Below, in pieces: positions 49,935-55,900 of a DNA stretch of 64,000 nucleotides. The stretch's first letter is position 1; each line of letters starts with the position of its first letter. The notes under the pieces are model-generated. The model was given only the letters and a program-made list of their open reading frames with translations, was not told the DNA's origin and did not search any database. The stretch comes from Ascidiella aspersa. Its lineage: Eukaryota. A program made the position numbers and the translations under genes. The stretch is from NCBI GenBank assembly GCA_963924565.1, contig OZ004608.1, forward strand, positions 9,486,001 through 9,550,000, in the 5' to 3' direction.

Positions 49935-52900
49935 TTAAGTAGTCCCCGGCCTCTTCCTTTTGAGCGTGCCTTCGCTTTCAAAGTGTATCTTCACCACAAC
50001 GCTACCGTCGTTGCGCGACTTGAACGAAGCATCTGAAAACGCAAAATTCAGTGGTTGATTAATGTACTTTTGTGCCGAACATTTACTATAAAATTGGCTT
50101 TACTATACAAGTGTACAGACTAAAAGTTGTTTTGTTCTTGACTCGAGTTAATAACGAGTAGCATATATATACAATTTTACCATAGTAGGGACGCACCTAA
50201 TCTTTTTAATCATTAAGCGGCCCTTGAAGATATCAATACTGCAGTGGTTAGTGTACACTAAATCGTCCCGTTTTGCAAAATATTTTATGGAAAAGTAATA
50301 TTATGATTCTCCGTCGTTATCCTGCAGTTAAACCAGGGGTTCTTAAACTGGGGTCCATGGACCCCTTAGGGGTCCGTGAAGTAGTTTTAGGGGGTTCATG
50401 AAGGTCTAATTGAAATATTAGTGTATATTTAAGAAGTAATCAATTTATTAAAGAAAATAATTTAATTAAAAATAAAACGGTTTTGCACTGAATGTATTTA
50501 GACTCCATTTCACTTTCACATTTTTGGACCAAAATCAGCAAATTTATGAAGTCTATTTGTACTGTGACGTCAATTTATGACGTAATTTTTTAATTTTTTT
50601 GCCTACAGTGGTCCACGCGAGATGAAAGAAAATTTTAAGAACTCCTGAGTTAAACCATAAAGAAACCTGAGCGGTCTAAAACGGCGTTCCGATAAAAGAA
50701 GATAGTTTTTTTTTTTGCAAGTAGCCTACATCTTAACGAATTTTTTATCAGGCCATATTCCTTATAGACCAGGCCATTCTTGAATATATTAAAACTAAGC
50801 GTTCAGTTGAATATTTGTGCACAACATAGAATCATAGCCTTACGTTTCCTAAGTTCGTCCTGTTATGACGTAACTTTGTGACGTCATCCGTGAGCGTTTT
50901 TATGCGTTTCGGTGAGAAAATCATTGTAATTTCACCCCTGTAGTCAAGTGTGCGATAAGGCGACATTCGACCTGATTTCAATATATCCCCAAAACATCGT
51001 TATGTCTGGTTTTGTCTCACTGGCAATTAGTTCATGTAAAATGTTCTCCACTTACTCTTGACGTCGCCGTGAGAAAAATCGCTGGTCTCGGATCGAGCCT
51101 GTGACGCAAGTCGTTTCAACGTCCCCTTCAGCGGGAGAAGCTCGGCCTCACTTGCGTCGTCTTTCACGTCAGCTTTGCGCTCAACCTGACGTCACGTACA
51201 AGTTAAAACAATCTTTGTATATGGCCGTATTTGTCCTAATTCTAAATAGAGAAATCAGGTGGCACTGTATAAAGACAAATTGTATTTGATTCTCGACAAG
51301 CTTTCGCACAACCGTGCTTCATCAGGTCAAAGTATAAAATTTTATACGAAAAGCTTGTCGAGAATCAAATACAATTTGTCTTTATACAGTGCCACCTGAT
51401 TTCCCCAAGTTAAAACAAGCTGTTGACACCACGGTAACGTGATAAAACAAAATCTTCAACAGGGATTCCACGAACAACAAACGGGTGGCAATGGCTGTCA
51501 TGTTGCAGTTTTATAATTCGCTAACATTAAGGAAAATTATAATTCGCTAACGTTAAGGTAAAACATGAGAGTGATTCGTATAAGGGAGACCTGGGTTCCG
51601 CGTATGCCGAGATACATCGTACAAAACGCTTCCCAATACCATAGGGCATTCTAATATCATTTGGATCAAACTTTATTGCCTTCTTTGTAGATTTTTGAAT
51701 TTTATTACGCAGATTTGGTTAATCCAAAAAATTATAGGTGAAATTCTAAGTGGCCCACAACAATAATAGCCTATAGTAACTTTTAACTGAACGTGTAAGT
51801 CCAAGGGTGTAATTTGTTTACCTTGCCAAAATGATTCACAACACACTAACACAGTTTGTTTATTTTGTTTTTGGCTGGAAAGGTGTCGGTTTTAATACTA
51901 AAGTTACATTACAAAGACGTTAGCGATCGCACAGCTAAAAACGCTTTTATAGCGGTTAAGATGCATAAGCTTTTACGAGGCTGCGATGAGACACATGGCG
52001 CCTTCGGGCAAAAATTATTTTATTTAAAATGTGCTAAGATATATCAGAAACGTTATTGAGATTCGAAGAAGCCCTTAACGAATAAAAATGCCGCATGAAC
52101 ATCTTATCCACTATTTTGCGTATGAGTTCCACCGGGTATAAGATTTCCAATAAGCCTGCCCTTTTCTTGTCTCATCAAAATCAAATCATATCATACTTCG
52201 GATACTTAAGTGTCTTTTAGTTAAGTCGTATTTGGCGCATATCTGAACTAAGGTGATATATAGACAAGAATGGGCGGTTAGAAAAAACGCAAAAACAGAC
52301 TTATTTATGTCTGACTCCAAATATCGGGGTGCTGCTTTACACGCCTGTAGATAGATTGCGTATTTTGATTGGTGCGCACGACACCACTTTGCCCAATTGT
52401 TTATTTTGGTTGTTATAAACGCATCCATTTCATCTCAGTTTCCGACATCATCAAACGTTACCAGGCGACAGAGGCACTATTTTCGTAACACAGGAAATCG
52501 CAAAGCCGCTACTCCCAGTAGCACAGGAGTTAATGATGGTGAAATACATTGCGGGTGATATACCAAGCTTTAGTGAACAGTGAACACTATACAGTGTGAA
52601 ATAAACGTCTAACTAATCTTTCAAATTTCGGATCTAACTTTACACGATTTCGCCAAGACACAGCCCACAAAGCCCATGTAAGAAGGAAGAAGCTTGTTCC
52701 TGATCCAAGTTAAACAGCATTTATTGCATGTTTTAATTCGCCTTGCGCGAGGGAAAACGTCAGCTTACCTTTAACACGATCAACCTGTAGATTTGTAGAA
52801 ACACAACTAGAACGTTCTTTCCGGTGAAAAATACCATCATTTGATGGATTTGACGATAAACGATCATCATGTAAAGGCGGAAGGCTAGAAACGGAACGTC

Positions 52901-55900
52901 CTGGAAGTAATGAAAGTCGTTCAACAAAAGTATAGGTTTATTGCTGTAAAACTGACGATATAGCCTATATGATCGTTACATGTTTTTTTACGTTTTTACC
53001 AGTACTTTGAACAAAGTATTTTTTTTAAGTCCGAGTGAAATCATTACTCACCCAAGCCACGTCCAAGTTAAGTTAGCATGAAATATAACATTGAAACTTT
53101 GAAATAAACTAATTCCATTTCGAGCAATATTTAACATAGTAAGCAGAAGAAATTAGGAAAATAAAGGAAACTGTTTTTCGCCGTAAAATTGAGATAAAAC
53201 CCGAATTGTAATGAAAAGTATTTAAATAAAACATTTGTTTTAACCTAAGTATAGTTTACCTGAAATGACTTAAGTCCAATCAGGTCGTTTTACCTATAAG
53301 GAATTAGTTACTTCGAAGTCATTTGGAACGAGTGACTTAGTTGCACTAAAGTCAATTTATTGACTGAAATCATTACAACACGAGTTTCTACAGTTTCATT
53401 AAATTCTGTTGTCCCTCTTTCGGTTTATTCATGGTCTGCTATTGGCCTTAGGGTGTACAATAATACATGTATCATCACGTGTACTCCATGCTGCATGTAT
53501 AGACATGTTATGGATTATCCCCGCGTCACACGGAAAGCAATAGATTAAGGCGTAAATGTTAATCCGTAATGTTCGGCCACAATCAGTTTATGGTTTCTTC
53601 GTCGCGTCTCAATCAGTTCGTAAACATATAACTACATCTTCTTAATAGCTCATCTTGATTTAAAGAAAGAGAGTTAAGGGATGCCAGATATATGCGTATA
53701 AATAGCATATTGATAGTATATCCACCTTTAGAAAATTTTCGCCAATCCCAAAATTAAGCAAACTAGCCCAGTGATTATGGCGAGCCACAGACCAAACATT
53801 TAACAGTATTCCTAAATTCTGTGAATTTTTTAGCTGTCTTCATCCAGTGTTGTGTTAATTGCATTTCTCCTAATAAATCACTACAGAAGGTATAGTCGTG
53901 CCTAAGTCTAAAGTTGTCCTATTTTAAATATTTGACCCACACGAAGAATTAAATCTTTTTGCAAATCTGTATTCTGCTACTGCAGTACTGTTAGATAATA
54001 ATTGTACAATATGGTTAATACAACGTTGATTGTTGCACTGAATATGTGAAAAATAGAAATCACCTTGACCCCTTTTTTTATTTTTGAATAAGATATACTG
54101 ACGATGCCTTAGTTGGCGAAATATATATATATCTTTTAAGATCTGATTAATGTGTCTGACCTGACTTGCTAGCTTTGCTAGATTATTTTTCTGTTAAAAC
54201 GTTGATTAACTGGAATATCATTAAAGGACCTAAAAACGATTTACACATGAAGGTTAATGAAAATGCGACAGCTAAGTGTTCAAACATAATAGATTTCCCC
54301 GTAGGGTGCTGCAAACAAATCCTATAAAATTGCCAACAAAAGTTTTTCAGCTCGTTTTCTCAACCAAATGATTTATCTACATCGAAACATTCAAAGTCAC
54401 TTTGGTCATGATATATTCATTTTGGCCAAAAATAATAAAACGCCTACAGAATAGATCTAATTTCGTATATGAAATCAATTTAAATCAGCTTTATTTCTTT
54501 TTTAATTAAACACTAAAATTCGTCCAAGAGTATAGATATAACTCAATGTCAAATCACTTAAAATAACTTGCTTCCTATTTCATAAAAAAAAAATTCTGCC
54601 CACCAGAATACCACTTTAGCTTAATATCAGGAAATCGTGTCGTGTTGTAGTGACTTAAGTTATTGACTTGGCTTAAGCGCACTTAAGTCACAGTTTTCCA
54701 ATTACTTGATTTGAGTTTAGTGTTTTGACCAAAATGGCTTGACTTGACTTCATGAACGTTAAGCAAGATACATTTCTTGCACCTTCCTATCAATTTTTGT
54801 GCAGTAGCGGCCATTAGAAGGCTGCAGCCGGTTTTCATGTTTTCACATTATTCGCGCCTTGTTTTCTTTTTTCGCCTCGTTTTGCCACCTTGTTTTTTCG
54901 TCGTTTTTCTTTACTGTATATATACCTCTGCAAGGTTACAAGTTTATATGCCCTGATGAAGATTACCTGGATAGGTTATCGAAACGTCGGTACAGAATAA
55001 ATTATTGTCGGAAGAACCCTCTTTATAATTGACTTCAGTCTGTTGGACAAATAACATGACTTGGACAGCTTAGGCCTACCTGAAGCAACATGGTGACAAG
55101 TATGCCCCAGAGGTCGGCGTTGTTGAACACGGATCGGGCGCAGCAGTTGTTCCCGGACTCGACCATGGTCACCTGGCCCGAGCTCTCGAACCCAACGCGC
55201 GTCTTCCGCGATTTGGCGGCGGTCAGCACCAGAGTAAACTGCGGCAAAAGTTGCTTGGTATATTGTAGGGTTGAAAACATGAAATTTAAAGTTGTTCAAA
55301 AGTCCAATTCCTCTATTTTCGAACTAATACCACCTATCACTAATTTGAAAATTATGAGAAAATAAATTCGAAACTCGTTACATTTTTGGTGCGGTAAATG
55401 ATAAAAGGCGATTTATGCAAGCACTACCTAAATTAGGAAGCTCCGAATTTTTAATTCAATATTAAACCAACTGTACATTAAAGTCAAACAAAAACGTTTT
55501 CTTTTATGTTAATCGAACTAAAACGTAAAGGTTTCTGGATTACCACTTCAATGTACTAGTAATACATGAAGTATACTCAGCATAACACAAACTACATAGA
55601 AACGAATATGCAACACAAGCGCGTTCTTAAATTGCCGGTTTCTCCCCTACTTTTGCGGTCAGTCGGTTTGTGAAAATGATCGGAACTAATCGTTTTGGGG
55701 CGCCTTGGGCAAATACGCAAAATTGCTTTTCCGTCGTCAAATATCGCCGTATCTAATTTTTGCCAGTCAATTTCACGACCGCAAAGTGAACATTAAAAGG
55801 GCAACGGAAATTTCTCTGTTTCTACAAATCGAAAACATATATATTCGAGTTTATTTAACCGGTTATAGGCTTTTCATATAACAAATAAAAACGACAATGC

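Follow-up and report, generated by a model that had tools for sequence, protein, structure and literature searches.

Three minimal hammerhead motifs in introns of an ascidian TMEM26 gene are probably passengers on Penelope-like insertions

Why should three different minimal hammerhead ribozyme motifs stand within 3.7 kb of a single gene? The question is raised by a window of 64,000 nucleotides from Ascidiella aspersa (assembly GCA_963924565.1, contig OZ004608.1, positions 9,486,001 to 9,550,000 of the forward strand; positions below are counted from the first base of the window), where the motifs lie in two introns of TMEM26, a gene on the minus strand. The analysis indicates that the hammerheads are probably passengers on three independent multi-copy insertions with target-site duplications (TSDs) on both sides, likely 5'-truncated terminal repeats of Penelope-like elements (PLEs), and that cleavage of the TMEM26 transcript by them, if any, is likely too slight to matter. 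Published work is cited throughout from excerpts of the papers.

Both strands of all 64,000 bases were scanned with a type-I hammerhead descriptor, which gave exactly three matches (Table 1). In each of them the type-I core CUGANGA ... GAAA ... UH is intact with stems I and II, one unpaired base stands between positions 9 and 10.1, after CUGANGA, together with a G10.1-C11.1 pair, and a short palindrome takes the place of stem III. Stem I measures 6, 8 and 4 bp in hammerheads 1, 2 and 3; stem II has 4 bp beyond the extra base, 3 bp and, counted by eye, 7 bp including one mismatch. Cleavage is predicted after 51298 in hammerhead 1, from the standard core, and after 54127 and 54988 in hammerheads 2 and 3. 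Only one of 180 Markov-simulated 64-kb sequences contained a match, and a second descriptor gave an expectation of 0.04 perfect matches per 64 kb (25 simulations). The three minimal hammerheads are confirmed as real and above chance. Strict and relaxed scans of both strands found no further intact core in the window. The relaxed scan, which allowed one core mismatch or a U3-A8 variant, added one match at 13163 on the minus strand, against 0.36 expected, and this candidate was rejected as being at chance level. An Rfam search with E up to 1 returned no hammerhead match, only two matches to microRNA hairpins far below their gathering scores.

Four of 11 listed sequencing runs were compared with the region 50700-55500: contigs of another sample under the same species label (X2), a run of a second organism, B (X5), a raw DNA run (X6) and an RNA run assigned by species label (X7). 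The X6 baseline depth of 6.2, the mean of 18 bins judged single-copy, corresponds to a genome near 310 Mb. Each motif was found inside its own insertion of 176-285 bp, bounded by exact direct repeats of 13, 10 and 9 bp in insertions 1, 2 and 3; among 1500 random boundary pairs, 0, 0 and 2 matched over these lengths. The bins containing the motifs had X6 depths of 4085 (51183-51343), 1609 and 722, or about 830, 350 and 130 copies of families 1, 2 and 3, which are rough upper figures that count matches down to 85% and are inflated in family 1 by inverted arms. The three elements do not cross-match. X2 contigs skip 51199-51405 and 54744-55028 while keeping one repeat copy, at single-locus depth; two of the three insertions (1 and 3) are polymorphic, with empty sites in this other sample. 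Matches of X5 over the region were short pieces only, among the rows listed, and the family-1 core pattern had no match in metagenome contigs. These data support three separate families, putatively Penelope-like. An earlier note, made by eye on the same DNA, had described three unrelated cores with AGCU, AUAUAU and ACGU palindromes and one extra base, had reported no other intact core in the remaining ~60 kb, and had suggested, as one of two readings, an insertion hotspot for several PLE families. The descriptor recovered all three cores at the same coordinates, the scans agree on the rest of the window, and the separateness of the families is backed by the TSDs, the copy numbers, the empty sites and the lack of cross-matches.

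It is hardly credible, in view of these results, that the motifs are regulatory ribozymes of TMEM26 adopted by the host, or chance matches to the descriptor. Two of the insertions are indeed no more than 50 nt from a splice site, which would suit a role in the gene, but simulated windows match as rarely as given above, hundreds of dispersed copies exist, insertions are missing from another sample, two of the motifs are antisense to the gene, and the third is folded away, as shown below.

Insertion 1 joins a forward-facing element end, with hammerhead 1, head to head to a shorter inverted copy. The arms of the resulting 54-bp inverted repeat (51251-51304 with 51350-51403) show 100% complementarity, and the sense motif overlaps with the repeat in its 3' part. 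The last 37-39 nt of the forward end (to 51212) form a tail, this being the length by which the two outer ends differ, and 639 X6 reads of family 1 stop near the shorter end, at about 51253, with mixed flanks. The left TSD copy occupies the positions 14-26 nt upstream of exon 8 of TMEM26. The empty site, a joint from 51198 to 51406 at which 13 letters fit both sides, was seen in an X2 contig (depth 113.7) and in one X6 read. Inverted arms occur in other family-1 copies too: among the 15 joints listed out of 321, 7 were taken as inversions with breakpoints elsewhere, the direction of the "opposite strand" joints being the analyst's interpretation, and 6 of them retain the core.

In the stretches 51186-51211 and 51396-51418 (minus strand), the TSD of insertion 1 duplicates a heptamer located 18 nt upstream of exon 8, which we take to be branch-point-like. 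The upstream copy of the heptamer is followed by a candidate cryptic AG acceptor near 51396, within the 54-bp arm. If insertion 1 has a cost, splicing may be the route, with the cryptic site possibly masked by the hairpin. In insertions 1 and 2 the 5' end (51334-51338 and 54072) is 7 and 18 nt, respectively, upstream of stem I. At 51334, loose ends with mixed flanks accumulate in X2, X5 and X7, and the outer edge of the hammerhead seems to be the starting point of many family-1 copies. A joint between a family-1 end and the family-2 hammerhead core (51401 to 54099, short side 21 letters) occurs in one X2 contig, possibly because one family is inserted beside the other elsewhere, or by a chance match.

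Insertion 2 is built differently, from two opposite-facing pieces that do not overlap. The segment 54032-54071 lies downstream of the hammerhead in family 2 and is the 3' end of the family; about 35 nt of family sequence are missing between the two pieces. The opposite-strand joint 54071-54196 was found in 432 X6 reads, 985 reads stop at 54031 with mixed flanks, and the loose-end lines at 54071 and 54196 have, by eye, a 25-nt reverse-complement overlap. Insertion 2 is two-directional, its 3' end being sense to TMEM26 and the hammerhead piece alone antisense, and its orientation can therefore not be scored as simply antisense. It appears to be present in X2, where contigs enter from both sides.

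Insertion 3 has no inverted partner. The depth of family 3 climbs toward the 3' end, and an X5 repeat contig matches 54894-55030 with one difference. At the start of the insertion are 20 open codons followed by a stop (54755-54817), which may be where the element's open reading frame (ORF) ends. The 20-codon peptide, which we presume to resemble the end of a PLE ORF, had no Pfam hit. The empty-site joint, from 54743 to 55029 with 9 letters fitting both sides, was found in one X2 contig of depth 119.5.

Table 1. Positions of the hammerheads, the parts of the three insertions and the neighbouring TMEM26 exons in the window
Feature	Position	Strand	Remarks
Hammerhead 1	51292..51331	-	minimal type I, palindrome AGCU, sense to TMEM26
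Hammerhead 2	54090..54135	+	palindrome AUAUAU, antisense to TMEM26
Hammerhead 3	54949..54992	+	palindrome ACGU, GUC triplet, antisense to TMEM26
Insertion 1, left TSD copy, 13 bp	51199..51211	.	identical to 51406-51418
Insertion 1, forward 5'-truncated element end with hammerhead 1	51212..51339	-	
Insertion 1, perfect 16-bp palindrome at head-to-head junction	51332..51347	.	
Insertion 1, inverted shorter element-end copy, from GAAA core	51347..51405	+	54 bp perfect, 51350 to 51403
Insertion 1, right TSD copy, 13 bp	51406..51418	.	
Insertion 2, left TSD copy, 10 bp	54022..54031	.	identical to 54198-54207
Insertion 2, 3'-terminal 40 nt of the family, sense to TMEM26	54032..54071	-	
Insertion 2, opposite-facing piece with hammerhead 2	54072..54197	+	X6 depth 2210 at 54133
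Insertion 2, right TSD copy, 10 bp	54198..54207	.	
Insertion 3, left TSD copy, 9 bp	54744..54752	.	identical to 55029-55037
Insertion 3, simple 5'-truncated element end	54753..55028	+	X6 depth 394 and 722, two bins
Insertion 3, right TSD copy, 9 bp	55029..55037	.	42 nt from exon 6 donor
TMEM26 exon 6	55080..55241	-	tblastn, three ascidian proteins; GT donor; 5' edge approximate
TMEM26 exon 7	52769..52900	-	Pfam Tmem26, E 8e-13; tblastn
TMEM26 exon 8, internal	51054..51185	-	69% identity to Phallusia TMEM26 residues 739-782; AG acceptor
TMEM26 ninth exon	about 50033-49950	-	downstream of exon 8

PLE insertions have been described with an inverted 5'-truncated partner, a 30-40-bp tail, TSDs of 8-10 bp and junction palindromes (PMC8557442, PMC3846280). 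The families examined here are likewise dispersed and multi-copy with 5'-truncated copies, as judged from depth and from the mixed 5' loose ends of family 1. TSDs bound all three insertions and an empty site is available for two; the head-to-head partner with its junction palindrome (16 bp) and a one-end tail in the published range were found in insertion 1. Tandem units each carrying a hammerhead, as in retrozymes, were not found at this locus: no tandem array covers any of the motifs within 49500-56500. A purified PLE protein was reported to cut and extend both DNA strands, with two reverse transcription start sites bounding the tail; its endonuclease favours AT-rich targets, and the PLE hammerhead remained uncut unless the protein was present (PMC11167929).

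Insertions of the observed shape could arise as follows. The endonuclease of the element would make a staggered cut in AT-rich DNA, giving rise to the duplications of 9-13 bp, and reverse transcription would begin near the RNA's 3' end and halt early. A single DNA end would have been extended in insertion 3. In insertions 1 and 2, both DNA ends would have been extended from different start points on the RNA, and the two cDNAs joined head to head. Overlapping pieces would produce an inverted repeat across the hammerhead, as in insertion 1, and non-overlapping pieces a simple inversion in which the hammerhead is turned antisense, as in insertion 2. On this view, a single integration mechanism would account both for the "covered sense" copy and for one of the "antisense" copies. 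The three insertions are young, likely PLE-derived stumps with minimal hammerheads, that is, new families of a known kind.

Several observations weigh against this reading. For none of the three families was a link to a reverse transcriptase or GIY-YIG sequence found, so that PLE membership is based on anatomy. In insertion 2 the difference between the two ends is about 75 nt rather than 30-40, and no empty site was found for this insertion among the rows listed. The empty site of insertion 3 comes from a single contig with a short side of only 21 letters and from no X6 read. Regarding the inverted arm, PMC3846280 favours self-priming over two-ended priming, and the present data leave the two unseparated for insertion 1. 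A 2026 preprint reports that Xenopus introns are depleted of retrozymes relative to intergenic DNA, with no strand analysis in the excerpts, so that, as a general matter, selection acting on copies within genes is not implausible. As for the clustering, the probability that three points placed uniformly in 64 kb come to lie within 3.7 kb is P = 0.0096, a value calculated for a window chosen post hoc. From the three families by themselves, 0.27 motifs would be expected per 64 kb and just 0.16 such triplets genome-wide, and an account by chance consequently needs further, uncounted families.

An alternative is that introns 6 and 7 of TMEM26 attract insertions of several PLE families, as a true hotspot, or act as a sink that tolerates them unusually well. 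All three motifs of the window are inside the 3.7 kb, with none in the other 60.3 kb (P about 0.01), and two further repeat families occupy the same 4.8 kb (bins 50861-51021 and 54564-54724). The flanks in intron 6 have 67% AT, compared with 61% across the window, in keeping with the target preference of the PLE endonuclease (PMC11167929), and TMEM26 exons had a depth of 0-1.4 in X7. Set against this, the window was picked for the pattern, and 3000 or 5000 motifs in a 310-Mb genome would yield 1.9 or 8.6 triplets by chance; hammerhead counts are in the thousands for several animals (PMC4209133). Up to 3.2 motifs per 64 kb would be compatible with the empty 60.3 kb. The insertions are separated by 0.5 and 2.6 kb rather than adjacent. 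Two of the three are missing from X2, with no replacement insertions among the rows listed; the cluster is accordingly a property of a single haplotype rather than a conserved feature. On balance, a hotspot or sink specific to these introns is considered unlikely, and the clustering results most likely from a dense repeat load together with tolerant introns.

The orientation of the motifs raised a further possibility, namely that selection purges active sense hammerheads from introns and that sense copies persist only if an inverted arm silences them. The earlier note offered such selection as one of two readings of an orientation bias, in which the sense motif was covered and the two others were antisense, and added that three cases cannot establish the bias. 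Its strand calls relative to TMEM26 are correct according to the tblastn exon map, and the sense motif is indeed covered by the 54-bp arm. In the folded ensemble, the pairing probability of stem I of hammerhead 1 is 0.00 with the arm and 0.46-0.87 without it; the arm abolishes stem I in these predictions. The description of both others as simply antisense does not hold for insertion 2, which is two-directional. The bias is not confirmed as a statistical pattern either, as one sense motif among three has P = 0.5, and the absence of an uncovered sense motif among three has P = 0.15-0.42 at cover rates of 5-50%.

Besides the effect of the arm on stem I, purging selection is favoured by the finding that an overlapping arm is present in just one of the six other core-retaining inverted copies of family 1 among the joint rows listed, by the assistance that a PLE protein gives to cleavage in vitro, which makes activation in trans conceivable (PMC11167929), and by the Xenopus depletion mentioned above. 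The two probabilities just given speak against it, as does the occurrence of arms in other family-1 copies. The TMEM26 transcript, moreover, offers no dimer partner. The stem III palindromes pair fully (4, 6 and 4 bp) only in self-dimers, and mixed dimers would have 0-1 bp in stem I and 1-2 bp in stem III, versus 4-8 and 4-6 in self-dimers; the three motifs are predicted to be unable to form mixed dimers. A single minimal hammerhead was reported not to cleave in vitro (PMC4209133). The ratios of hammerhead-sense to antisense reads in X7 were 0.73, 1.82 and 0.59 for families 1-3, without a common direction, in a library whose strandedness is not established, and no pile-up of RNA ends was listed in this run, which barely covers TMEM26. 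Finally, selection has had little time, since two of the insertions are polymorphic. The claim that selection removes sense ribozymes is therefore not upheld, and such purging is regarded as improbable here. No test of an intronic strand bias of PLE hammerheads was found in the literature. It is likewise improbable that minimal PLE hammerheads cut pre-mRNA in vivo, helped by the PLE protein or by other copies, and that sense intronic copies persist mainly where an arm shuts the ribozyme. If this were true, arm position and strand across the genome would provide a population-genetic readout of cleavage in vivo.

The host gene was mapped by tblastn with three ascidian TMEM26 proteins as eight coding stretches from 61968 to 49950; a query with exon 7 retrieved three ascidian proteins only. 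Intron 6 (55079-52901) contains motifs 2 and 3, and intron 7 (52768-51186) contains motif 1; the splice sites of both are canonical. The third exon (57429-58808, minus strand) is long, Ser/Thr-rich and poorly conserved, and contains RRXR motifs that are presumably furin-like. The three ascidian homologues have 546, 675 and 815 residues, and match the long exon at its 3' end only.

Other repeats are present in and around the gene. A dispersed repeat in TMEM26 intron 8 (50857-50921, X6 bin depth about 100) has a second copy at 27977-28041. In intron 6, another family has two copies in opposite orientations that are 74% alike (54640-54707 and 53316-53383), and insertion 3 starts 36 nt from one of them. 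Farther away, a 225-bp element at 30085-30309 with 57-bp inverted arms (89%) resembles a miniature inverted-repeat transposable element; it was considered as a hammerhead-type insertion and rejected, having neither a core nor a TSD of 4 bp or more. A broken integrase remnant of a long-terminal-repeat retrotransposon (Integrase_H2C2, rve) is located at 24164-25244, and an intronless DNAJB13 gene at 22444-23382, with one unbroken frame of 312 residues and a best hit in Phallusia mammillata (86% identity).

The meaning of the locus is at present modest: three more PLE-type hammerhead families in an ascidian, two of them polymorphic here. Because many insertions are two-directional, counting PLE hammerheads by strand gives confounded tallies; in genome-wide tests of bias, the strand of the hammerhead, the overlap with the arm and the integrity of the core should each be scored on their own. 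The species, with its hundreds of young polymorphic copies in each family, is well suited for asking whether minimal hammerheads cut in vivo. No example of an ascidian Penelope hammerhead was found in the literature; a tunicate paper lists nine type-I hammerhead loci, with Penelope unmentioned in the excerpt (PMC8704543).

Compared with known systems, the insertions share with animal non-LTR (long terminal repeat) retrozymes a non-coding nature, a type-I hammerhead and a relation to PLEs, but retrozymes form tandem arrays and the present three insertions are non-tandem (preprint 10.64898/2026.07.22.740005). In the twin priming of LINE-1, a second DNA end primes internally and leaves an inverted piece within one TSD, which fits insertion 2. 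At L1 junctions mostly 1-10 bp are lost or repeated, whereas about 35 nt are lost in insertion 2 and about 57 nt repeated in insertion 1, and there is no poly(A) tail here (PMC11702581).

The resemblance to endonuclease-bearing PLEs (Arkhipova et al. 2013, PMC3846280; Craig et al. 2021, PMC8557442) extends to 5' truncation, the inverted partner, the head-to-head palindromic junction, an optional one-end tail of 30-40 bp (in insertion 1), TSDs near 8-10 bp and an empty allelic site. The present stumps differ in being 176-285 bp long with almost no ORF, and in insertion 2, where the two pieces do not overlap and the ends differ by some 75 nt. With the PAc Poseidon element (Frangieh et al. 2024, PMC11167929) they share two reverse transcription starts bounding the tail, extension of both strands, AT-rich targets and the lack of RNA ends at the predicted cut site; the mechanism of this lizard element was worked out in vitro, whereas here it is inferred from insertion ends alone. 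The closest counterparts in the hammerheads themselves are the minimal motifs of metazoan PLEs (Cervera and de la Pena 2014, PMC4209133). Motifs 1 and 2 depart from these by a short stem II of 3-4 bp, and for the present families a full-length parent element was not recovered. Common to both are the extra base between 9 and 10.1, the G10.1-C11.1 pair, the palindromic stem III, the occurrence of several unrelated families in one genome, and an arrangement mostly as single dispersed copies, with some opposite-strand pairs 100-700 bp apart.

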